Source of the DNA: a virus
Taxonomy: Duplodnaviria > Heunggongvirae > Uroviricota > Caudoviricetes
Direction: 5' to 3' (one strand)
Virus record (IMG/VR): IMGVR_UViG_2711768073_000011
Length of the DNA stretch: 11,213 nucleotides
Of the stretch, positions 1,152-11,213 are shown in pieces (the first letter of the stretch is position 1; every line of letters begins with the position of its first letter). The notes beneath the pieces were generated by a model. The model saw only the letters and a list, made by a program, of their open reading frames with translations. It was not told the DNA's origin and did no database searches. A program made the translations under genes and the position numbers.

Positions 1152-1605
1152 TTCCCTGCGTGAAGCCATGACCCGTTCATGCCGATGGTGTCAGGCCAAC
1201 CCGGAAAAATTCACCATTTTCGTGGAGAGCGGCAACATTGAAACGACCGGAGAAACGCCCTCGTTTGTTTACCGCTATCAGATGGTGATGTTTGTCATGG
1301 ATTACGCCGGGGAGCTGGACGACCTCACGCTGCCGCTGCTGGCGTGGTTATCCGAAAATCAGCCACAGTTGTTGCTCAACCCTGAGCGTAATCAGGACAT
1401 CAAATTCTCCGCCGTTATCAATGACGATGACAGCGCCGATCTCCTGTTTACGCTCCCCCTGCGGGAACGCGTTCGCATCACGCGCAGCAGTCAGGGGACA
1501 CCGCAGGCAGAACACCTGCCGGAGCCAAAACCCCGCCTGCCATCTCCCGAAGGCGACTGGTCGCATGTATTCCAGGATGTGACGTGGGGTGAAAGCGATG
1601 GATAA
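1138..1605 (+). CDS. R: tail completion protein (P2 gpR-like)
   Basis: 155-aa ORF immediately after the lysis cassette and before S, the position gpR occupies in P2. The size matches my recollection of P2 gpR. It is translationally coupled to both neighbours. Confidence 0.8.
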   Translation: MLKTDSLREAMTRSCRWCQANPEKFTIFVESGNIETTGETPSFVYRYQMVMFVMDYAGELDDLTLPLLAWLSENQPQLLLNPERNQDIKFSAVINDDDSADLLFTLPLRERVRITRSSQGTPQAEHLPEPKPRLPSPEGDWSHVFQDVTWGESDG

Positions 1606-2233
1606 GGCATTCACCCGCGTGGATGAAACCTTTGAGGCTATCCGCGACAGCCTGAATCAGCAGGCCATCAATAACATCGCCAGAAAGCTGGCACAGGATT
1701 TACGCCGCGCCCAGCAGGCGCGTATCCGGTCACAGAAAGCGCCGGACGGGACCGCGTGGACACCACGCAGACGCCGCGTAACCCGGATACAGGAGCGCAT
1801 TCGCTTTATCTGGACTAACGAAGCACGCACGCTGAAAAACTGGCATCACGACACGGGGAAATACGGGCGAACCATTACCGGGTGGGATGAGGATAAAAAC
1901 AATATCCGCACGTTTTACCGGGATGACATCGACCGTTTTCTGGAAATACGCACCCGGCGCATCAACCAGGACAGCACAAAGCGCGTCCCCATGTTCGTAA
2001 AACTGCGCACCGCCCGCTACCTGAAAGCCCGTGCAGATGCTTCCGGTGTGACGGTGGGTTACAGCGGCGTGGCCGCACGTATTGCCCGCGTTCATCAGTT
2101 CGGTGAGCGCGATCAGGTTGCGCCGGGCATTTTCACCGATTACCCGGTACGTGAGCTGTTGGGCATCAGTCAGGCAGATGAACGCCTGATTTATAACACG
2201 GTGCTGGGCCGGATTGCGGAGGCTGTACGGTGA
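1598..2233 (+). CDS. S: tail completion / virion morphogenesis protein (P2 gpS-like)
   Basis: ORF between R and V. ATG at 1598 overlaps the R stop (ATGGATAA); a GTG at 1589 is an alternative start. Its stop overlaps the GTG start of V (GTGA). The call rests on position and coupling; the product is basic and Arg-rich. Confidence 0.75.
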   Translation: MDKAFTRVDETFEAIRDSLNQQAINNIARKLAQDLRRAQQARIRSQKAPDGTAWTPRRRRVTRIQERIRFIWTNEARTLKNWHHDTGKYGRTITGWDEDKNNIRTFYRDDIDRFLEIRTRRINQDSTKRVPMFVKLRTARYLKARADASGVTVGYSGVAARIARVHQFGERDQVAPGIFTDYPVRELLGISQADERLIYNTVLGRIAEAVR

Positions 2234-2545
2234 GCGCAGAACTCATGCGACTGCTGAGCAACATCATCCGCACTGGGATCATCTCTGAAGTTGATGAGAA
2301 GTCCTGGTGCGTGCGCGTTCGCAGCGGCGAACTGGAAACAGGCTGGTTGCGCTGGAACACCACGCGCGCGGGAGCCTTCAATGTGTGGCTGCCGCCATCA
2401 CCCGGCGAACAGGTGGTAATTGCCTGCATTGGCGGCAACCCGGAAACCGCCATGATAATTGGCAGCCTGTGGAGTGATGCCAATCCGGCCCCCGGCAAAA
2501 GCCTGAAAGAAATCGTGGTCAGCGCGCCGGATGGCGCGGTGTTCC
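2230..2545 (+). CDS. V: baseplate spike protein (P2 gpV-like), copy 1, 3'-truncated by the N gap
   Basis: GTG start overlapping the S stop; reads MSAELMRLLSNIIRTGIISEVDEKSWCVRV... up to the N run at 2546. Identical to the first 105 codons of the complete copy at 4066. Confidence 0.7.
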
Positions 2546-2556
2546 NNNNNNNNNNN
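2546..2556. other. assembly gap (11 N)
   Basis: Run of n characters lying exactly at the junction between duplicated blocks. Confidence 0.97.
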
Positions 2557-2974
2557 TAACGAAGCACGCACGCTGAAAAACTGGCATCACGACACGGGGA
2601 AATACGGGCGAACCATTACCGGGTGGGATGAGGATAAAAACAATATCCGCACGTTTTACCGGGATGACATCGACCGTTTTCTGGAAATACGCACCCGGCG
2701 CATCAACCAGGACAGCACAAAGCGCGTCCCCATGTTCGTAAAACTGCGCACCGCCCGCTACCTGAAAGCCCGTGCAGATGCTTCCGGTGTGACGGTGGGT
2801 TACAGCGGCGTGGCCGCACGTATTGCCCGCGTTCATCAGTTCGGTGAGCGCGATCAGGTTGCGCCGGGCATTTTCACCGATTACCCGGTACGTGAGCTGC
2901 TGGGTATCAGCCAGGCAGATGAGCGCCTGATTTATAACACGGTGCTGGGCCGGATTGCGGAGGCTGTACGGTGA
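2557..2974 (+). CDS. S: S-like gene, 5'-truncated fragment (divergent middle copy)
   Basis: Resumes S in frame at the equivalent of position 1816 straight after the N gap and ends at the same GTGA junction. Four synonymous differences from copy 1 lie near its 3' end. Confidence 0.65.
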
Positions 2975-3552
2975 GCGCAGAACTCATGCGACTGCTGAGC
3001 AATATCATCCGCACCGGGATCATCTCTGAAGTTGATGAGAAGTCCTGGCGCGTGCGCGTTCGCAGCGGCGAACTGGAAACAGGCTGGTTGCGCTGGAACA
3101 CCACGCGCGCGGGAGCCTTCAATGTGTGGCTGCCGCCATCACCCGGCGAACAGGTGGTAATTGCCTGCATTGGCGGCAACCCGGAAACCGCCATGATAAT
3201 TGGCAGCCTGTGGAGTGATGCCAATCCGGCCCCCGGCAAAAGCCTGAAAGAAATCGTGGTCAGCGCGCCGGATGGCGCGGTGTTCCGCTACGACGCAGAC
3301 GCTGGCGCACTGAGCGCCAGCGGCATGAAAACAGCCACCCTGCAGGCATCCGTCAGCGTGACACTGGATACGCCCGTCGTGGAATGCACAAACCTTCTGA
3401 GAACAGCGACGCTTGACGTCACAAAAGGGGGAAAGATGAGCGGCAATATCACGCACAGCGGCGGCGATTTCACCTCAAACGGCATCACAGTGCATACGCA
3501 TAAGCACGGTGGCGTTAAAGGTGGCAGCGATTCGACAGGAGGCCCGCAGTGA
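2971..3552 (+). CDS. V: baseplate spike protein (P2 gpV-like), divergent middle copy
   Basis: 193-aa ORF with a GTG start. The C-terminal region is Gly/Ser/Thr-rich and carries the motif VHTHKHGG, the His-x-His pattern found at the apex of gpV-type spikes. Differs from the copy at 4066 by C27R, N/D and D/N substitutions. Confidence 0.85.
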   Translation: MSAELMRLLSNIIRTGIISEVDEKSWRVRVRSGELETGWLRWNTTRAGAFNVWLPPSPGEQVVIACIGGNPETAMIIGSLWSDANPAPGKSLKEIVVSAPDGAVFRYDADAGALSASGMKTATLQASVSVTLDTPVVECTNLLRTATLDVTKGGKMSGNITHSGGDFTSNGITVHTHKHGGVKGGSDSTGGPQ

Positions 3553-3899
3553 CAACCCGCTACACAGGAATGAACCCGGACGGAACGGGAAACCTGAACG
3601 ATATGGAGCACCTGAAACAGTCAGTCAGGGACATCCTGACCACCCCGCTGGCCAGCCGGGTTATGCGACGGGAATATGGCAGCCTTGTGCCTGATTTGAT
3701 TGACGAACCCATGAATAACACCACGCGTCTGCAATGCATGAGTGCTGCCGTGATTGCGCTGACACGATGGGAACCCCGCATTGCCCTGGACGCCATCGAC
3801 GTTGTCTGGAAGGCAGGAGGCCGCGCCGGGGTGACGCTGTCGGGCACTGTCATGCAGACCATGCAGAATGTTGAATTAACCATCACGCTGAGGGAGTAA
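3549..3899 (+). CDS. W: baseplate wedge protein (P2 gpW / GPW-gp25 family), divergent middle copy
   Basis: 116-aa ORF (MTTRYTGMNPDG...) with GTG start overlapping the V stop (GTGA). Size and position match P2 gpW. Confidence 0.85.
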   Translation: MTTRYTGMNPDGTGNLNDMEHLKQSVRDILTTPLASRVMRREYGSLVPDLIDEPMNNTTRLQCMSAAVIALTRWEPRIALDAIDVVWKAGGRAGVTLSGTVMQTMQNVELTITLRE

Positions 3900-3902
3900 A
3901 TC

Positions 3903-4009
3903 ATGCCTGCCGTTGACCTTTCACAGTTACCGGACCCCGCCATCATCGCGGAGCCTGACTTTGAGGCAATTCTGGCTGACACAAAGGCCATGATGATTGC
4001 GTCCTATCC
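3903..4009 (+). CDS. J: baseplate protein J (P2 gpJ-like), 5' fragment truncated by the N gap
   Basis: ATG at 3903 preceded by GAGGGAG; reads MPAVDLSQLPDPAIIAEPDFEAILADTKAMMIASY before the N run. Same as the start of the complete J at 4998. Confidence 0.65.
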
Positions 4010-4019
4010 NNNNNNNNNN
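4010..4019. other. assembly gap (10 N)
   Basis: Run of n characters lying exactly at the junction between duplicated blocks. Confidence 0.97.
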
Positions 4020-4069
4020 GCCTGATTTATAACACGGTGCTGGGCCGGATTGCGGAGGCTGTACGGTGA
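4020..4069 (+). CDS. S: S-like gene, 3'-terminal fragment after the gap
   Basis: Last 16 codons of S (...LIYNTVLGRIAEAVR*) in frame, ending in the GTGA overlap with V. Identical to copy 1. Confidence 0.5.
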
Positions 4070-4647
4070 GCGCAGAACTCATGCGACTGCTGAGCAACAT
4101 CATCCGCACTGGGATCATCTCTGAAGTTGATGAGAAGTCCTGGTGCGTGCGCGTTCGCAGCGGCGAACTGGAAACAGGCTGGTTGCGCTGGAACACCACG
4201 CGCGCGGGAGCCTTCAATGTGTGGCTGCCGCCATCACCCGGCGAACAGGTGGTAATTGCCTGCATTGGCGGCAACCCGGAAACCGCCATGATAATTGGCA
4301 GCCTGTGGAGTGATGCCAATCCGGCCCCCGGCAAAAGCCTGAAAGAAATCGTGGTCAGCGCGCCGGATGGCGCGGTGTTCCGCTACGACGCGGACGCAGG
4401 CGCACTGAGCGCCAGCGGCATGAAAACGGCCACCCTGCAGGCATCCGTCAGTGTGACACTGGACACGCCCGTCGTGGAATGCACAGACCTTCTGAGAACG
4501 GCGACGCTTGACGTCACAAAAGGGGGAAAGATGAGCGGCAATATCACGCACAGCGGCGGCAATTTCACCTCAAACGGCATCACAGTGCATACGCATAAAC
4601 ACGGTGGCGTTAAAGGTGGCAGCGATTCGACAGGAGGCCCGCAGTGA
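4066..4647 (+). CDS. V: baseplate spike protein (P2 gpV-like)
   Basis: 193-aa ORF with GTG start. Its first 105 codons are identical to copy 1 at 2230. Carries the same VHTHKHGG apex motif. Confidence 0.88.
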   Translation: MSAELMRLLSNIIRTGIISEVDEKSWCVRVRSGELETGWLRWNTTRAGAFNVWLPPSPGEQVVIACIGGNPETAMIIGSLWSDANPAPGKSLKEIVVSAPDGAVFRYDADAGALSASGMKTATLQASVSVTLDTPVVECTDLLRTATLDVTKGGKMSGNITHSGGNFTSNGITVHTHKHGGVKGGSDSTGGPQ

Positions 4648-4994
4648 CAACCCGCTACACAGGAATGAACCCGGACGGAACGGGAAACCTGAACGATATG
4701 GAGCATCTGAAACAGTCAGTCAGGGACATCCTGACCACCCCGCTGGCAAGCCGGGTTATGCGACGGGAATATGGCAGCCTTGTGCCCGATTTAATTGACG
4801 AACCCATGAATAACACCACTCGTCTGCAATGCATGAGTGCTGCCGTGATTGCGCTGACACGATGGGAACCCCGCATTGCCCTGGACGCCATCGACGTTGT
4901 CTGGAAGGCAGGAGGCCGCGCCGGGGTGACGCTGTCGGGCACTGTCATGCAGACCATGCAGAATGTTGAATTAACCATCACGCTGAGGGAGTAA
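4644..4994 (+). CDS. W: baseplate wedge protein (P2 gpW / GPW-gp25 family)
   Basis: 116-aa ORF with GTGA overlap to V. The protein is the same as the middle copy; differences are synonymous. Confidence 0.88.
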   Translation: MTTRYTGMNPDGTGNLNDMEHLKQSVRDILTTPLASRVMRREYGSLVPDLIDEPMNNTTRLQCMSAAVIALTRWEPRIALDAIDVVWKAGGRAGVTLSGTVMQTMQNVELTITLRE

Positions 4995-4997
4995 ATC

Positions 4998-5894
4998 ATG
5001 CCTGCCGTTGACCTTTCACAGTTACCGGACCCCGCCATCATCGCGGAGCCTGACTTTGAGGCAATTCTGGCTGACACAAAGGCCATGATGATTGCGTCCT
5101 ATCCCGCCGAACAGCGTGAAGCCGTTTCCGCCGCGCTGGAGCTGGAATCGGAACCCCTTAACGTTATCGCTCAAACCATGTCGTTTCGTGAAATGCTGTT
5201 ACGCCAGCGGGTCAATGAGGGTGCACGCGCCTGCATGCTAAGCCACAGCGCCGGGACAGACCTGGACAACCTCGCGGGCAATATGAACACAAAGCGCCTG
5301 GTTATCACTCCGGCAACGGATACCACCGACGCAGTGATTGAAAGTGACACCTCGCTGAGACTACGGGCGCAACGGGCATATGACGGTCTGAGTGTTGCTG
5401 GCCCGTCAGGTGCATACGAGTATTTTGCACGCAGCGCCAGCGGTCTGGTACGCGATGCGCGGGCCATCAGCCCGTCTCCGGCCAACGTGACGGTTTCCAT
5501 CCTGTCCACTGAGGGCGACGGCACAGCAACGGAGGCGTTGCTTAATACCGTTCGCGCCGTTCTGAATGCAGAGGATACCCGCCCGGTGGCCGACCGCCTG
5601 ACCGTACAGAGCGCCAGCATCGTGACATGGCGGCTGAATGCAAAACTGTACTTTTACCCCGGTCCGGAATCCGAACCTATTCTGGCCGCGGCGGAATCGT
5701 CATTCAGGAAGTGGCTGGCTGAACAGGGGCTTATCGGTCAGGACGTGGCGTTGTCCGCCATTGCTGCCGCACTTCATGTACACGGCGTGCAACGCGTGGA
5801 GATAATCGAACCCACACAGAATATGGCCATCAGCGACATACAGGCGGCGCGCTGTGAGTCATTCACCATCAGCGAAGGTGGGCGTAATGAGTAA
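4998..5894 (+). CDS. J: baseplate assembly protein J (P2 gpJ-like)
   Basis: 298-aa ORF with a GAGGGAG Shine-Dalgarno. Size and position after W match P2 gpJ. Its stop overlaps the start of I. Confidence 0.9.
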   Translation: MPAVDLSQLPDPAIIAEPDFEAILADTKAMMIASYPAEQREAVSAALELESEPLNVIAQTMSFREMLLRQRVNEGARACMLSHSAGTDLDNLAGNMNTKRLVITPATDTTDAVIESDTSLRLRAQRAYDGLSVAGPSGAYEYFARSASGLVRDARAISPSPANVTVSILSTEGDGTATEALLNTVRAVLNAEDTRPVADRLTVQSASIVTWRLNAKLYFYPGPESEPILAAAESSFRKWLAEQGLIGQDVALSAIAAALHVHGVQRVEIIEPTQNMAISDIQAARCESFTISEGGRNE

Positions 5895-6417
5895 TTCACT
5901 GTTACCGCCATCAGCCAGCAATTTCATGCGTTGTGCCGAAGCTGTCGGAACGCGCATTACAGACATCCCGGTAGACCTCAACACGCTGTGGTCGCCGGAC
6001 ACCTGCCCGGTGCACCTGCTGCCTTATCTCGCCTGGGCATTTTCCGTTGACCGCTGGGATCGCAACTGGCCGGAAGAGACAAAACGACAGGTGATTCGTG
6101 ATGCATGGCTGATACACCGACACAAGGGAACCATCAGCGCACTGCGCCGGGCCATTGAGCCGCTGGGATACCTCATTCGTGTGTCTGAGTGGTGGGAGTT
6201 CGGCGGAGAACCGGGAACATTTACCGTTGAAGTGGGCACGCTGGACAGTGGCGTGACGGAGGAAATGTATCTGGAAATGGAGCGGTTGATTGCTGATGCC
6301 CGCCCGGTCAGCCGCCACATGACAGGGCTGAATATCATTCAGGAGATTCCGGGGGATATTTTCGCGGCGGCAGCAACTTACGACGGTGAAGTCATTACCA
6401 TTTATCCGGACGATTAA
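5887..6417 (+). CDS. I: tail / baseplate protein I (P2 gpI-like)
   Basis: ATG at 5887 (MSNSLLPPSASNF...) overlapping the J stop, giving 176 aa. The ORF track's longer form from 5854 is an upstream extension inside J. Confidence 0.85.
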   Translation: MSNSLLPPSASNFMRCAEAVGTRITDIPVDLNTLWSPDTCPVHLLPYLAWAFSVDRWDRNWPEETKRQVIRDAWLIHRHKGTISALRRAIEPLGYLIRVSEWWEFGGEPGTFTVEVGTLDSGVTEEMYLEMERLIADARPVSRHMTGLNIIQEIPGDIFAAAATYDGEVITIYPDD

Positions 6418-6419
6418 GC

Positions 6420-9011
6420 ATGAGTACCACAACACGAAAATTTAAAACCGTTATCACCGATACGGGTGCAAAAAAATTAGCTCAGGCAGCCGCGCCAGAT
6501 GGTAAGCCTGTCCGCCTGACTCATATGGCCGTGGGCGACGGTGGCGGCACGTTGCCCACACCAGACAGTAAGCAGACCCGTCTGGTGCATGAGGTGTGGC
6601 GACATACTGTTAATCGCGTCATCCTGGACGCAACACATCAGAACCGCATTATTGCGGAGCTGGTTATTCCTCCTGAAACGGGCGGATTCTGGATCCGGGA
6701 AATTGGTGTATTTGATGAGCACGGCGATTTGATCGCGGTGGGCAATACTGCGGAAAGTTACAAGCCAGCCGTTGCCGAAGGATCCGGACGTGTACAAACA
6801 TTTCGCACCATTCTGACCGTATCCAGCACTGCCACCGTGGCGCTTACCGTGGATAACACCATGGTTATGGCCACAGTGGATTACGTGAATGACAAACTGA
6901 AAGAACATGAACAGTCACGACGTCACCCGGACGCCTCGCTGACCGCAAAAGGCTTTGTTCAACTCAGTAGCGCCACCAACAGCACGTCTGAAACACTGGC
7001 CGCAACGCCGAAAGCGGTAAAGGCCGCGTATGACCTTGCTAACGGGAAATATACCGCACAGGACGCCACCATAGCGCGAAAAGGCCTTGTCCAGCTCAGT
7101 AGTGCCACCAACAGCACGTCTGAAACGCTCGCCGCAACGCCGAAAGCGGTAAAGGCAGCATATGACCTTGCTAACGGGAAATACACTGCACAGGACGCCA
7201 CCACAACGCGAAAAGGCCTTGTCCAGCTCAGTAGTGCCACCAACAGTGATTCTGAAACGCTTGCGGCAACGCCAAAGGCGGTAAAGGCAGCATATGACCT
7301 TGCTAACGGGAAATACACTGCACAGGACGCCACCACAGCGCGAAAAGGTCTTGTCCAGCTCAGTAGCGCCACCAACAGCACGTCTGAAGCATTGGCCGCA
7401 ACACCGAAAGCGGTAAAGGCCGCGTATGACCTTGCTAACGGGAAATACACTGCACAGGACGCCACCACAGCGCGAAAAGGTCTTGTCCAGCTCAGTAGCG
7501 TCACCAACAGCGATTCTGAAACGCTTGCGGCAACGCCAAAGGCGGTAAAGGCCGCGTATAACCTTGCTAACGGGAAATACACTGCACAGGATGCCACTAC
7601 AGCGCGAAAAGGTCTTGTCCAGCTCAGTAGCGCCACCAACAGTGATTCTGAAACGCTGGCCGCAACATCAAAAGCGGTGAAGTCTGCCTATGACAATGCT
7701 GAAAAACGTCTTCAGAAAGATCAGAACGGTGCGGATATTCCGGGAAAGGATACCTTCACGAAAAATATCGGTGCCTGTCGTGCTTATAGCGGCGCTTTGA
7801 GCACTGAAGCCGGAAACTGGACAACCGCTCAGTTTATTGAATGGCTGGATTCCCGTGGTGCATTTAATCATCCGTACTGGATGTGCAAAGGCTCATGGTC
7901 ATATGCAAATAACAAAATCATTACGGATACCGGATGTGGTGATATCCACCTGGCTGGTTGTGTCGTCGAGGTCATGGGAACTAAATCTGCAATCACTATC
8001 CGAGTAACCACGCCGACAACATCAAGTGGTGGCGGTACAACCAGCGCACAATTCACTTACATTAATCATGGGGACGGCTACTCCCCCGGCTGGCGTCGTG
8101 ACTGGAATCGTCAGGGCGACTCAATGACCGGAACGATTAATCAGGATGGCGGAAGCCAGAATGCCTATATGTCTACGGCCTTATGTTCAGGCACCAGAGG
8201 CGGCAAAAAATATCTCAGAAAGTTTCGTGGTGGAGAAGGAGATACTATCTGGCATGAAACAGTACAGGGCGGGGTAATTCGCTGGGCGACAGGAAACTAT
8301 GACGCTCAGGAAGAATTATCACTCAGCTCCGCTTATGGTCTCCGTTCAAGAGGTGAGATTACATCACTCAGTGCTAATGGTCTGCGCATTGCTTATGGCA
8401 ATTATGGATTCTTTATCAGGAATGATGGCGGCAGCACATATTTAATGCTGACGGCCTCTGGCGATAAATTTGGGACATGGAACGGCTTAAGACCGCTGAC
8501 TATCAATAACGCCAATGGCGGAGTGTCAATGGGGCATGGCCTGAGTGTTACAGGTGATATTGTCTCAAGTACCAAAGTACGTGCCGGTAGCGGGAAAAAG
8601 TTCACGGTCAGCAGCAGCAATACATCAACGAAGGAAGCCGCATTCAATTTGTGGGGAAACGCAAGTCGTCCTGTGGTGGCTGAATTAGGTGATGATGCAG
8701 GCTGGCATTTTTACAGTCAGAGAAATACAGATAACAGCATCACTTTTGCTGTTAACGGGCAGGTATCACCATCTAACTATGGCAACTTTGATTCACGCTA
8801 TGTCCGGGATATTAGACTTGGTGGCGCGTCATCCTATAAACCAGCAAATAACGGTACAACATGGACGCATCAGGCTCCATCTGGTTGCGTATATACCGGG
8901 ATTATCGTTCAGGATACAGGCTCAAACTCTGCCGATAATATTGGTGGTGTTTATTACAGACCAATTCAAAAAAATATTAATGGTACATGGTATAACGTAT
9001 CGAGTGTTTGA
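6420..9011 (+). CDS. H: tail fibre protein (P2 gpH-like) with an internal tandem repeat array
   Basis: 863-aa ORF. The N-terminal ~170 aa (MSTTTRKFKTVITDTGAKKLAQAAAP...HMAVGDGGG...IIAELVIPPE...EHEQSRRHPDASLTAKGF) matches what I recall of the conserved gpH N-terminal domain. It is followed by six 44-aa repeats and a Gly/Asn/Ser/Thr-rich distal region. Confidence 0.9.
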   Translation: MSTTTRKFKTVITDTGAKKLAQAAAPDGKPVRLTHMAVGDGGGTLPTPDSKQTRLVHEVWRHTVNRVILDATHQNRIIAELVIPPETGGFWIREIGVFDEHGDLIAVGNTAESYKPAVAEGSGRVQTFRTILTVSSTATVALTVDNTMVMATVDYVNDKLKEHEQSRRHPDASLTAKGFVQLSSATNSTSETLAATPKAVKAAYDLANGKYTAQDATIARKGLVQLSSATNSTSETLAATPKAVKAAYDLANGKYTAQDATTTRKGLVQLSSATNSDSETLAATPKAVKAAYDLANGKYTAQDATTARKGLVQLSSATNSTSEALAATPKAVKAAYDLANGKYTAQDATTARKGLVQLSSVTNSDSETLAATPKAVKAAYNLANGKYTAQDATTARKGLVQLSSATNSDSETLAATSKAVKSAYDNAEKRLQKDQNGADIPGKDTFTKNIGACRAYSGALSTEAGNWTTAQFIEWLDSRGAFNHPYWMCKGSWSYANNKIITDTGCGDIHLAGCVVEVMGTKSAITIRVTTPTTSSGGGTTSAQFTYINHGDGYSPGWRRDWNRQGDSMTGTINQDGGSQNAYMSTALCSGTRGGKKYLRKFRGGEGDTIWHETVQGGVIRWATGNYDAQEELSLSSAYGLRSRGEITSLSANGLRIAYGNYGFFIRNDGGSTYLMLTASGDKFGTWNGLRPLTINNANGGVSMGHGLSVTGDIVSSTKVRAGSGKKFTVSSSNTSTKEAAFNLWGNASRPVVAELGDDAGWHFYSQRNTDNSITFAVNGQVSPSNYGNFDSRYVRDIRLGGASSYKPANNGTTWTHQAPSGCVYTGIIVQDTGSNSADNIGGVYYRPIQKNINGTWYNVSSV
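6948..7700 (+). repeat. six tandem in-frame 132-bp repeats (44-aa KGLVQLSSATNS[TD]SETLAATPKAVKAAYDLANGKYTAQDATTAR units) inside H
   Basis: Unit starts at 6948, 7080, 7212, 7344, 7476 and 7608; the last unit decays after about 30 codons. The units are near-identical at protein level with scattered nucleotide differences. They resemble the short repeat motif known from phage tail fibres. Confidence 0.9.
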
Positions 9012-9013
9012 TT

Positions 9014-9547
9014 ATGATGCATTTAAAAAATATAAAACCGGGCAATCCAAAAACAAAAGAACAGTACCTGTTAACTAAAAACTCCGGCGTTGTCTGGTTA
9101 TTCGCTGAAGATGGTAAAAACTGGTATGAGGAACAAAAGAACTTTCAGCCAGACACCATAAAGATTGCATATGATGAAAATAATGTCATATGCGACGTGC
9201 AAACGGATGTAACTGCAATTTGCCCGGAAGGAAAAAGTGTTGTCGAGTTGCCTAATATTACAGCAAACCGACGCGCTGATATTTCAGGTAACTGGATGTT
9301 TAAAGATGGCTCAGTCATTAAACGTGTGTATACCGAAGAAGAGCAACGCTTGCAGGCTGAAAACCAGAAACAAAGGTTATTACAGCAGGCCAGAGAAAAA
9401 ACGCAGTTCTGGCAGACCCAGCTTGCATTAGGGATTATCAGTGATTCAGATAAGCAACAACTGATGCGCTGGATGCGGTACGTGCAACAAGTTGAGACCA
9501 CTGATACCACTGAATTACCCGTTACGTTCCCTGATCAACCAGAATAA
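9014..9547 (+). CDS. G: tail fibre assembly protein / chaperone (P2 gpG / Tfa family)
   Basis: ORF directly after H; the ATG at 9014 (or 9017) lies just after the H stop at 9009-9011, and the ORF track's TTG at 9008 is less likely. About 177 aa. The position and the Q/E-rich C-terminal part (QFWQTQLALGIISDSDKQQLMRWMRYVQQVE) are typical of Tfa proteins. Confidence 0.8.
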   Translation: MMHLKNIKPGNPKTKEQYLLTKNSGVVWLFAEDGKNWYEEQKNFQPDTIKIAYDENNVICDVQTDVTAICPEGKSVVELPNITANRRADISGNWMFKDGSVIKRVYTEEEQRLQAENQKQRLLQQAREKTQFWQTQLALGIISDSDKQQLMRWMRYVQQVETTDTTELPVTFPDQPE

Positions 9548-9551
9548 ACGA

Positions 9552-9590
9552 AAGGCCCGAATATCGGGCCTTATCGTTATTTCTGTTTAT
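9552..9590 (+). terminator. rho-independent terminator after G (possibly bidirectional)
   Basis: Stem aaggcccg (9552-9559) / cgggcctt (9565-9572) with loop aatat, followed by the T-rich tract atcgttatttctgtttat. It sits in the 68-bp gap between the convergent G and U genes. Confidence 0.6.
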
Positions 9591-9615
9591 CTAACTATTT
9601 GTGATTTGCGTTAAA

Positions 9616-10110
9616 TCAGAACAGTCCCTTAACAGAACTGACCGCACTGTTAAGGGATGACGCCACCTTATCTTTGAAGCCGGACAGCATATCGCTGAAC
9701 GATGAGGATTGCAGGCGCTCCCGCAAATCCTCATCACAGCGTTCAAGGGTCAGTGAAAATTCTATCTTTTTCGCCTTACCGTAGCGATCAAACTCGGAAC
9801 GGGTCGTATTCGTTCCGGTCAGGACATACATGCCGTAAATCTGCCCGACGCCATCAATCAGAGGCCAGGGGCGTCCTGTATACGCCTGCGTGGTCAGCAG
9901 CGACAGCGACACTTCGCCACCTGTAATTTCAGGATAAAGCACACCAGAAAGAACGATGCGATCATCACCTGCACCGATATACTGCCATCTTGCTGAACGG
10001 TTAACGCGTTCATTTTTTACATGCCGCCAGCTTTTGTTTTGCTGTAACTGCTGATGCGGCAATGTGCGCAGCTCAAAAACAAACATGCCGTAGATCATCA
10101 TCATGGCCAT
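9616..10110 (-). CDS. U: tail protein U (P2 gpU-like)
   Basis: 164-aa ORF on the - strand (MAMMMIYGMFVFELRTLPHQQ...GVLYPEITGG...WPLIDGVGQIYGMYV...KIEFSLTLERCDE). Motifs and size match my recollection of gpU, and it lies immediately after the tape measure gene on the same strand. Confidence 0.8.
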   Translation of the reverse strand: MAMMMIYGMFVFELRTLPHQQLQQNKSWRHVKNERVNRSARWQYIGAGDDRIVLSGVLYPEITGGEVSLSLLTTQAYTGRPWPLIDGVGQIYGMYVLTGTNTTRSEFDRYGKAKKIEFSLTLERCDEDLRERLQSSSFSDMLSGFKDKVASSLNSAVSSVKGLF

Positions 10111-10116
10111 GACTCC

Positions 10117-11213
10117 TCAATCTTTATCGTAAAAACTGCCACGCCCGGCACGGGTACGCCGATCCAGTTCTGCCCTGACCATTTCACCGACCAGTTTCGC
10201 CAGTTCGCGGGGATTCTGCGTAACAACGTTATGCAGATGAACATGAATTTCACCGCAAAATCCGGAGACAGCAGGCTCCCGGTTACGGGAAGTTGCAGGA
10301 ACTGATGCCACTGGCGATCGTATGGCCTCCGCCACCGGGCGGGAGCTGGCCGCAACAACAGGGACCAGCGCCGGAGGCAGCGGAGCCGGGACCACAGGTG
10401 TGATGTTGATTGCGGAAGCAGGCTTACTGACCTGCGCAATCTTCCGCTCCTGCCACTCCCCACGAACAGCAAGTGCGCGGGGCAGGTTCTTAAAGACAAT
10501 ATCGCCAGGGCCAATGCGTTTTTTCGTCTCATCAACCAGCTTACCTGTGTTATCAGCAATTTTGCTGAGTCTGCGTAGCGTCCCGGTATTGCTGTCTGTG
10601 AGCGGTTTGTTGTCTTTGGGTTTATCACCTCCGGTGCCATTGCCATTTTCCACAGGCTTCGGCGGATTGATTTTCGCAAGGTCCCCCTGAAGCAAGGCAA
10701 CCTTGTCCTGAAGAATGGCCGCACGCTGTGCGTCTTCGATTTTCTTGCGCGCCTTTTCCGCTTCATCCGGAAGGACGCCAAGTTTTTCAAGTATCCACGC
10801 CAGCGTATCCAGTAGCATTTTTGCAGGTGTCAGAACAAGTTGTAACGCACCGCCAAGAACGTTACCGAATATCTCGCCAGCACTGGTACATTTATCCAGC
10901 GTTTCCTTGCTGGACTCCATCGGTGACAGCAGCGATTTAAACCAGTTAAACACCTGGCTGATCCCGCTTCCGATTGCGTCAAAAACAGGACCAAACCGTT
11001 CAAAGGTTTCGCGCAACGGGGTCAGCCTTTCCATAATCCCGCTGAACACCCCGACAAAAAATGCCCTGATGGGATCCCAGTATTTCCAGATAAGAACGGC
11101 AGCTCCGGCAAGCGCAGCCACGATAAGACCAACCGGACTGATCAGCGCCCCGATAGCGCCTCCCAGTAAAGAAACGGAACCCGTCACCATTCCCCATAGT
11201 GCTGGCAGGACCC
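10117..11213 (-). CDS. T: tail tape measure protein (P2 gpT-like), C-terminal part; 5' end outside the window
   Basis: The - strand reading frame is open to the window edge; the ORF track's Met at 11190 is internal. It contains a hydrophobic stretch (GAIGALISPVGLIVAALAGAAVLIW) and charged, probably coiled regions typical of tape measure proteins, and lies directly upstream of U. Confidence 0.75.
   Translation of the reverse strand, partial: VLPALWGMVTGSVSLLGGAIGALISPVGLIVAALAGAAVLIWKYWDPIRAFFVGVFSGIMERLTPLRETFERFGPVFDAIGSGISQVFNWFKSLLSPMESSKETLDKCTSAGEIFGNVLGGALQLVLTPAKMLLDTLAWILEKLGVLPDEAEKARKKIEDAQRAAILQDKVALLQGDLAKINPPKPVENGNGTGGDKPKDNKPLTDSNTGTLRRLSKIADNTGKLVDETKKRIGPGDIVFKNLPRALAVRGEWQERKIAQVSKPASAINITPVVPAPLPPALVPVVAASSRPVAEAIRSPVASVPATSRNREPAVSGFCGEIHVHLHNVVTQNPRELAKLVGEMVRAELDRRTRAGRGSFYDKD

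Follow-up and report, generated by a model that had tools for sequence, protein, structure and literature searches.

In this study, we analysed a stretch of 11,213 nt (the window) that is the entire record CYGD01000051.1 of draft assembly GCA_001284425.1, in which a segment with the phage late genes S, V, W and J is laid out three times. This triplication is very probably a false duplication, produced from two templates when a short-read draft was assembled and scaffolded, and the real locus then has a single copy. The true locus is most probably 9,377 nt long, its likeliest sequence being positions 1-1815, 2557-4009 and 5105-11213. The cause is most likely the presence of two related templates in the reads, not just unmerged ends of one template, and it is probable that the strain harbours a pair of related P2-family prophages.

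Source of the record and anatomy of the repeats

CYGD01000051.1 is a fragment of a P88-like (P2-family) Escherichia coli prophage. Its genes run from the lysis genes through R, S, V, W, J, I, H and G, followed by U and T on the minus strand. The R, S, V, W, J, I, H, G order of a P2-family (P88-like) late operon and the family domains were both found, all Pfam matches being above the cut-offs, together with synteny and about 97% DNA identity with the phages PhiR44_2, 500465-2 and P88. Both ends of the record fall within genes, and among the relatives compared no lineage-variable site lies within 30 nt of these outer ends.

The only N runs in the window are at 2546-2556 (11 N) and 4010-4019 (10 N), and they separate three contigs. 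Contig 1 (1-2545) comprises the end of the holin gene, an endolysin gene, an Rz-like gene, R (GpR Pfam match, 1138-1605), S and V up to codon 105. Contig 2 (2557-4009; 1,453 nt) begins within codon 73 of S and contains the whole of V and W and the first approximately 35 codons of J. Contig 3 (4020-11213) begins within codon 196 of S, and carries the last 16 codons of that gene, V, W, J, I, H and G, with U and a partial T on the minus strand. The spacer between contigs 1 and 2 hides a supposed V-to-S junction, and that between contigs 2 and 3 a supposed J-to-S junction.

Repeat copy 1 (1816-2545, plus strand; S codon 73 to V codon 105) recurs in contig 2 at 2557-3286 on the same strand, with 7 mismatches over 730 nt. 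The part of contig 2 at 2925-4009 recurs as copy 3 at 4020-5104 (S tail, V, W and start of J), again on the plus strand, with 17 mismatches over 1,085 nt. Copies 1 and 3 overlap at 2184-2545 and 4020-4381, and here the 362 nt show 0 mismatches. No repeat reaches even one base past the N runs or these limits. Repeats of 730 and 1,085 nt at an identity of at least 98.4% cannot have arisen by chance. The offsets are unequal (741 and 1,095 nt, both multiples of three), and the blocks of 730, 1,453 and 1,085 nt have different end points. Placed on the collapsed locus, the contigs start in rising order at 1, 1816 and 2184. A first-pass annotation of this DNA had described the repeat blocks, the N runs, their coincidence with the junctions and the identity of copies 1 and 3 over 362 bp, and all of its coordinates proved exact. 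That the copies are not all identical was a point absent from it: contig 2 differs from the path through copies 1 and 3 at 21 sites (1.45%), and its two ends are identical to the other copies over 343 and 284 nt.

Only some of the repeated genes, all on the plus strand, are complete. The sole complete S, a gpS-like tail completion gene (Phage_tail_S, PF05069), lies at 1598-2233. It is followed by a V fragment at 2230-2545, which is cut by the N run after codon 105 and is annotated as a protein of 109 aa in CYGD01000051.1. The middle contig has a V allele with R27, N141 and D166 (2971-3552), a gp25-like W (3549-3899) that shows only synonymous differences from the other W copy, and a J fragment (3903-4009) that is cut by the second N run after about 35 codons and called as a 40-aa protein. 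Contig 3 has V at 4066-4647 (Pfam Phage_base_V, Phage_spike and Apex) with C27, D141 and N166, an allele also present in O26 and O104 strains and here assigned to lineage Q, as well as the gp25-like baseplate wedge gene W (4644-4994; GPW_gp25), the sole complete baseplate gene J (4998-5894; Baseplate_J) and I (5887-6417; Tail_P2_I). The earlier claim that genes are broken mid-ORF at each gap was thus borne out for V, S and J.

A single S-V-W-J segment in related genomes

Among 1,048 complete-genome records that covered at least 80% of the 3,289-nt query spanning the three copies, the best 30 were inspected, and in all of them the query stacked as three pieces on one single interval of 1,453 nt. 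A 40-mer common to the three copies had one match in each of 31 viral contigs, none of which was tandem or the source, and 0 matches in contigs representing one genome per species. The first junction, with any 11 bases allowed in place of the Ns, had 0 exact matches in the viral contigs. Seven other drafts that encode an identical 863-aa tail fibre each have one S-V-W-J segment.

The expectations for a tandem duplication are likewise at odds with the window. N runs occupy both candidate junctions, with no novel end-to-start junction among the sequenced bases; the units are neither of one length nor in register; and the copies correspond to two haplotypes that already existed in nature, in different prophage lineages, and are not derived from each other. 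The view of the first-pass annotation that the segment is a scaffold artefact and not a triplication therefore gained support from the single copy in relatives and from the missing junction sequence.

Two natural alleles and a mosaic of lineages

Two lineages served for comparison, lineage P (reference L042) and lineage Q (reference E2865, also L003), both references being picked after the haplotypes had been seen. The 21 differences between contig 2 and the path through contigs 1 and 3 comprise 18 synonymous and 3 non-synonymous changes. OSUCMP42NDM, L036, L037 and L039-L042 each have the full set of 21 contig 2 alleles; these carriers include 6 of the 7 drafts with the identical tail-fibre protein, and their flanks match the window. 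All 21 alleles of the alternative path occur together in 10 records, namely L003 (E2865) and nine viral contigs; over 1,331 nt downstream, the flanks of these records show 52-57 differences from the window. The lineage Q allele type was found in O26 and O104 strains, in which the prophages have other flanks. Judged from these patterns, the contig 2 differences are real alleles under selection and not read errors. The V protein of the middle allele is encoded on 18 contigs, and these show 11-32 nucleotide differences from contig 2. The exact nucleotide haplotype of contig 2 occurred in no other assembly compared, the closest being L042 with 4 differences.

Each of the three contigs is a mosaic of the two lineages. 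Contig 1 matches lineage P up to 1546; beyond this it has the Q allele at 1639, P at 1815 and 1936, and then Q again (2159-2483). Contig 2 has the P allele at the 21 sites (2900-3725) and Q alleles at 3126, 3144, 3224 and 3794. The Q alleles of contig 3 lie at 4098-4889; from 5018 to its end, this contig matches lineage P. Such mosaicism in all three contigs requires either that the assembler collapsed bubbles or that the prophages really recombined with each other.

For the four internal contig ends, the distance to the next site of difference between L042 and E2865 is 1, 1, 2 and 11 nt. Contig 2 starts 1 nt after and stops 1 nt before such sites, which are equivalent to 1815 and 5105 and are located outside the region that varies within the window itself. 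The 11-nt distance, longer than the 1-2 nt of the others, is that of the end at 2545. A simulation gave p of about 1.6e-4 for this closeness, a value that is partly post hoc, as the references were chosen after seeing the haplotypes. Since the contig ends abut sites that differ between lineages, the reads probably held two related templates.

Proposed origin of the layout and repair of the locus

We propose that three contigs of the P88-like prophage fragment were strung together with spacers of 10-11 N. The read set would have contained two closely related S-to-J templates, of which P would own the flanks of the window and Q would carry the O26/O104-type allele. Most likely, Q would be another prophage, related to the first and located in the same chromosome, or, less likely, a second strain. 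Co-residence of copies is frequent, with 1,194 places counted in 1,067 records and at most 3 in one genome. P and Q would be 98.5% identical over about 1.7 kb, with long identical stretches; contig 2 would represent the P version, and the Q version would be found in the 3' part of contig 1 and at the start (5') of contig 3, with their 362 identical overlapping bases. Internal contig ends would stop where the templates diverge, as a read-by-read extender or gap filler cannot choose a base at such a position. The layout S-V'/'S-V-W-J'/'S-V-W-J would then have resulted because the overlaps were never merged before concatenation. Points that speak against this origin are the mosaic make-up of all three contigs, the lack of the exact contig 2 haplotype in the other assemblies compared, the 11-nt distance at 2545 and the position of the outer record ends away from variable sites.

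The first-pass annotation had attributed the layout to unmerged contig ends plus an extra contig. Its account of the overlap stood, whereas the extra contig is not redundant, as it holds a distinct natural allele with 21 differences. It had also proposed to delete 2546-4381. This repair indeed leaves intact S, V, W, J and I in a continuous operon, and the predicted shortening of about 1.8 kb was confirmed: the collapsed path of 9,377 nt is 1,836 nt shorter than the window, and the closest relatives (L035-L042) align to it collinearly and without gaps. However, the allele that is kept in this way mismatches the flanks, the joined contigs 1 and 3 differing from L042 at 28 sites. The alternative path 1-1815, 2557-4009 and 5105 to the end, which deletes 1816-2556 and 4010-5104, has the same repaired length and differs from the gapless L042 at 7 of 9,377 positions.

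Alternative explanations

A simpler account would derive all three contigs from one prophage copy, with unmerged ends and with the 21 differences as sequencing or consensus errors. It would fit the identity of copies 1 and 3 over 362 nt and the identical ends of contig 2 (343 and 284 nt). However, the 18 synonymous differences are third-position changes, each version's 21 alleles recur as complete haplotypes in independent genomes, and the contig ends match lineage-variable sites. Sequencing error was rejected as the source of the 21 differences because of the synonymous excess and the haplotype recurrence, neither of which random errors would yield, and we regard this account as very improbable. 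Potentially, contigs from the two templates were instead joined by start position, through reference ordering or merging of assemblies, with fixed short Ns and no gap filling. The exact order of the contigs by start coordinate on the collapsed locus and the near-constant spacers of 10-11 N speak for such a process, which we nevertheless judge to be unlikely. Ordering alone leaves the contig ends at variable sites unexplained, although graph-based contigs could end there too; its usual products are long pseudomolecules, whereas this record is merely 11.2 kb; and the spacers vary in length.

It is also conceivable that two co-resident P88-like prophages recombined unequally to give a real heteroallelic partial tandem of S-V-W-J, with its junctions in the small gaps. 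The copies carry different natural alleles, as the product of inter-prophage recombination could, both offsets are multiples of three, and genomes with 2-3 such prophages exist. Yet solely the junctions are unsequenced, though novel unique junctions assemble easily from short reads; the units are unequal, with copies 1 and 3 forming an exact overlap; and truncated fragments of V, S and J would sit in an essential late operon. Moreover, no such arrangement was seen in the best 30 of the 1,048 complete-genome records, the 31 viral contigs or the seven close drafts. Hence, this possibility appears to be the most remote of all, and a false duplication from two related templates is the reading that we prefer.

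Implications for the record and comparison with known systems

The significance of a false duplication at this locus is one of data hygiene only. The second V, the second W and three fragments (proteins of 109, 147 and 40 aa) of the record would be nonexistent, and they inflate gene counts and pan-genome clusters. Merging the identical overlap and dropping the middle contig would moreover create a hybrid V/W allele that is unseen in relatives. Where duplicated blocks stand beside short N runs in a bacterial draft, the alleles should therefore be checked against the flanks before a copy is picked.

The behaviour of GapFiller offers a precedent for the proposed origin. This program extends gap edges base by base until it meets ambiguous 'allelic' bases, removes 10 nt from the edges, does not close a gap unless the insertion agrees with its estimated size, and leaves repeat gaps open where the alternatives have an equal ratio (PMC3446322). 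In the Sanger prokaryote pipeline it is run after Velvet and SSPACE (PMC5320598). A literature search for the record and assembly accessions found none, and they were absent from those supplementary lists of the pipeline paper that were searched. GapFiller behaviour predicts contig ends at variable sites, short leftover Ns and duplicated sequence on either side, all of which are present in the window; the N lengths of 11 and 10 and the 11-nt end offset do not derive from the published algorithm, and such a program may have been used here. We also considered the 10-nt trimming as the origin of the N-run lengths; this agrees with the contig 1 end (2555 minus 10) but with none of the others.

A hallmark of false duplications is that gaps separate the duplicated copies within one scaffold (Ko et al., 2022, PMC9516828). 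The window shares with these cases the gap-separated copies on a single scaffold, the single copy in independent assemblies and the spurious gene models (2 V, 2 W and 3 gene fragments). Contig 2 differs from contigs 1 and 3 in an allele-specific manner and is heterotype-like, whereas the end of contig 1 and the start of contig 3 are identical and thus homotype-like; in the published work these classes are set by read depth and k-mer multiplicity, and for the window they were assigned from the assembled bases. In contrast to the diploid vertebrate haplotypes described there, the 'haplotypes' of a haploid organism can only stem from paralogous prophages or from a mixed culture.

Among phages, the closest known system is Escherichia phage P88 with its relatives (genus Xuanwuvirus; P2-family temperate myoviruses), which are about 97% identical in nucleotide sequence to the window over the lysis-to-baseplate region. 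They have the same gene order (holin, endolysin, Rz, R, S, V, W, J, I, H, G), and the U, T, E, tube and sheath block likewise lies on the opposite strand. The C-terminus of the tail fibre and its repeat number differ among the P88 relatives. The P88 relatives have one S-V-W-J, whereas the window as deposited has the triplicated segment.

Results

The apparent triplication of the S-V-W-J segment is best supported as a scaffold artefact and not as a biological feature. The window, recovered through an exact match of its H protein, is the entire 11,213-nt record CYGD01000051.1 of the draft assembly GCA_001284425.1 (identity verified), a small scaffold that starts within a holin gene and ends within the tape measure gene. 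Its only N runs, of 11 N at 2546-2556 and 10 N at 4010-4019, delimit contig 1 (1-2545), contig 2 (2557-4009) and contig 3 (4020-11213). Positions 2557-3286 repeat 1816-2545 (730 nt, 7 mismatches), 4020-5104 repeat 2925-4009 (1085 nt, 17 mismatches) and 4020-4381 equal 2184-2545 (362 nt, 0 mismatches), and none of these repeats extends by even one base beyond its ends. All numbers given for N runs and repeats by the first-pass annotation, which had proposed such an artefact, were correct when rechecked on the window sequence; the recurring blocks are present, but the annotation was silent on the fact that contig 2 differs in sequence from the other two copies. The offsets between copies are unequal (741 and 1095 nt), and therefore the copies do not form a tandem array built from a single unit. 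Both offsets are multiples of three, so that reading frames carry over the gaps, which is probably a coincidence. Three spurious gene-caller proteins (2230-2559, 2531-2974 and 3903-4025; 109, 147 and 40 aa) extend into or through the N runs.

A search of 5,426 complete E. coli genomes with the 3,289-nt stretch returned 1,048 records that cover at least 80% of it, and in the best 30 of these the three pieces all stack on one interval of exactly 1,453 nt. The collapsed, single-copy sequence aligned in one piece to 994 records. A 40-mer common to all three copies has a single match in each of 31 viral contigs, and the seven other drafts with an identical H protein, on contigs of up to 399 kb, each carry a single S-V-W-J and align without gaps to the 9,377-nt collapsed window. 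Since the relatives are single-copy, both supposed junctions consist of N only, the offsets are unequal and copies 1 and 3 overlap perfectly, the locus falls 1,836 nt short of the record length, which bears out the earlier estimate of about 1.8 kb.

Contig 2 differs from the path through contigs 1 and 3 at 21 sites, all within 2900-3725, and it is indistinguishable from the other copies over its initial 343 nt and final 284 nt. Eighteen of these differences are synonymous and the remaining three alter V (C27R, D141N, N166D). All 21 contig 1/3 alleles occur together in E2865 (L003) and nine viral contigs (lineage Q), and the best-matching complete genomes for this path include those of O26:H11 and O104:H4; the full set of 21 contig 2 alleles is present in OSUCMP42NDM, a strain, and in six of the seven drafts that share the tail fibre (lineage P). 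Read errors were rejected as the source of the differences, because the synonymous excess points to diverged functional alleles and both haplotypes are found whole in nature. The exact nucleotide haplotype of contig 2 was found in no other assembly. The "extra contig" of the first reading is a distinct allele and not redundant.

On sequence comparison the window flanks fall within lineage P: 9 sites differ from OSUCMP42NDM in the 6.1 kb from 5105 to the end and 2 in 1000-1815, whereas lineage Q records differ just downstream at 52-57 of 1,331 sites. The closest relative (L042, GCA_030001295.1) differs at 7 of 9,377 sites from the path 1-1815 + 2557-4009 + 5105-end, versus 28 sites for the path obtained by deleting 2546-4381, the repair first suggested. 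S, V, W, J and I are intact under either repair, and that part of the suggestion stands, but it leaves an allele at odds with the flanks. Along its whole length, only the path with contig 2 retained resembles a known prophage; contig 2 is therefore probably the rightful occupant, with a foreign allele on the ends where contigs 1 and 3 overlap, and a repair that retains contig 2 would be the better supported one.

The contig ends were compared with the P/Q variable sites, i.e., all differences between L042 and E2865 at 1400-3700 in collapsed coordinates. Contig 2 starts one base past site 1815, where P has C and both Q and every other relative have A; this site lies one base ahead of the repeated block. 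The contig ends one base short of the site equivalent to 5105, which is C in P and T in Q. Contig 3 starts two bases past a P/Q site, and contig 1 ends 11 bases short of the next one. With three of the four ends within 2 nt of a P/Q site, placement at least this close had p = 1.6e-4 in 200,000 random placements, a value that is only partly independent because the references were picked after the haplotypes had been seen. Two of the abutting sites (the 1815 and 5105 equivalents) fall outside the copy-comparable part of the window and independently indicate that both versions were present among the reads. Among 35 relatives compared, the C at 1815 is shared with L042 only, and the other 31 covering the site have A. 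Two unrelated short-read contigs with the same V protein, L049 (Logan SRR060744_328) and L052, terminate no more than 2 nt from the position corresponding to 5104; the segment from S to the start of J may be a common shared block, with frequent divergence at the J start among co-occurring prophages. In the relatives compared, the 30 nt next to each record end (1 and 11213) contain no lineage-variable site.

Measured against L042 and E2865, each of the three contigs is a mosaic. Contig 1 switches from Q at 1639 to P at 1815 and 1936 and back to Q thereafter. Contig 2, otherwise P, shares Q bases with contigs 1 and 3 at 3126, 3144, 3224 and 3794, such that all window copies are Q at 2385/2403/2483 = 3126/3144/3224 = 4221/4239/4319 and at 3794 = 4889. 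These isolated sites may be bubbles collapsed by the assembler, or real exchange or gene conversion between two co-resident prophages. The mosaic sites, the N lengths, the outer ends and the contig 2 haplotype have no bearing on the main conclusion.

Discussion

How the record could have arisen is suggested by its contig ends. A read-based extender would advance along sequence common to two templates and halt where the next base is ambiguous, leaving contig ends at P/Q variable sites. GapFiller extends both gap edges by one base at a time, applies a majority-ratio rule for "allelic differences", trims gap edges by 10 nt, closes a gap only when the insertion fits the estimated size, and leaves repeat gaps open when the alternatives are in equal ratio (PMC3446322); its halting at ambiguous bases is exactly the behaviour that the pattern in the window suggests. 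The widely used Sanger prokaryote pipeline runs Velvet, then SSPACE and then 120 rounds of GapFiller, and its authors describe the latter two as greedy algorithms able to make false joins (PMC5320598). We infer that software of this type may lie behind CYGD01000051.1; reference-guided contig ordering would give the same layout. Multiple copies of such a segment within one complete genome are common (1,194 places across 1,067 records, with a maximum of three per genome), and therefore a second P88-like prophage on the same chromosome is the simplest source of the second template, although a mixed culture would look identical in the window. The value of the finding lies in a curation note and in the hint of two related prophages in the strain.

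The element itself is an E. coli prophage of the ordinary P88-like type within the P2 family. Pfam assigned, on the plus strand, an M15 endolysin (204-596), GpR (1138-1605), a GpS-type tail completion protein (1598-2233), the V spike with OB domain, spike trimer and apex (4066-4647), the gp25-like W (4644-4994), J (4998-5894), I (5887-6417), the 863-aa tail fibre H (6420-9011) and the fibre assembly protein G (9014-9547), and on the minus strand GpU (9616-10110) and the start of the tape measure protein (from 10117). Within H, a 132-nt (44-aa) unit is repeated six times head-to-tail at 6815-7774 (65-92% identical to the reference copy), with six Pfam Phage_fiber_2 matches; repeat number and C-terminal domain vary among relatives. 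Between the convergent G (+) and U (-), a 9-bp GC-rich hairpin with T runs on both strands (9552-9572) looks like a bidirectional terminator, and a terminator scan found three such sites in 9400-9750 versus 0.3 expected. In some relatives, G and U are separated by a DNA invertase and by alternative fibre or chaperone cassettes in inverted orientation (L044 15623-17800, L048 6865-8924); none was found in the G-U interval of the window (9547-9616). E2865-type Q prophages have a 1.9-kb DUF6645 gene between the Rz1-like gene and R (L003 1638-3515; window ~1151), an insert absent from the window and lineage P relatives.

Escherichia phages PhiR44_2, 500465-2 and P88 share ~97% DNA identity with the window and the same gene order, including the inverted U-T-E-tube-sheath block. 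Phage P2 differs, as in the window U, tape measure, E, tube and sheath are opposite in strand to the baseplate and fibre genes. The inverted U-to-sheath block (window 9616-11213, minus strand; L035 22620-28195) is the usual P88-like layout, as in OSUCMP42NDM and PhiR44_2. Gaps between duplicated copies on one scaffold were described as a primary mark of false duplication, which is either heterotype (allele-derived) or homotype (derived from error or overlap) (Ko et al., PMC9516828), and this record shows both types side by side.
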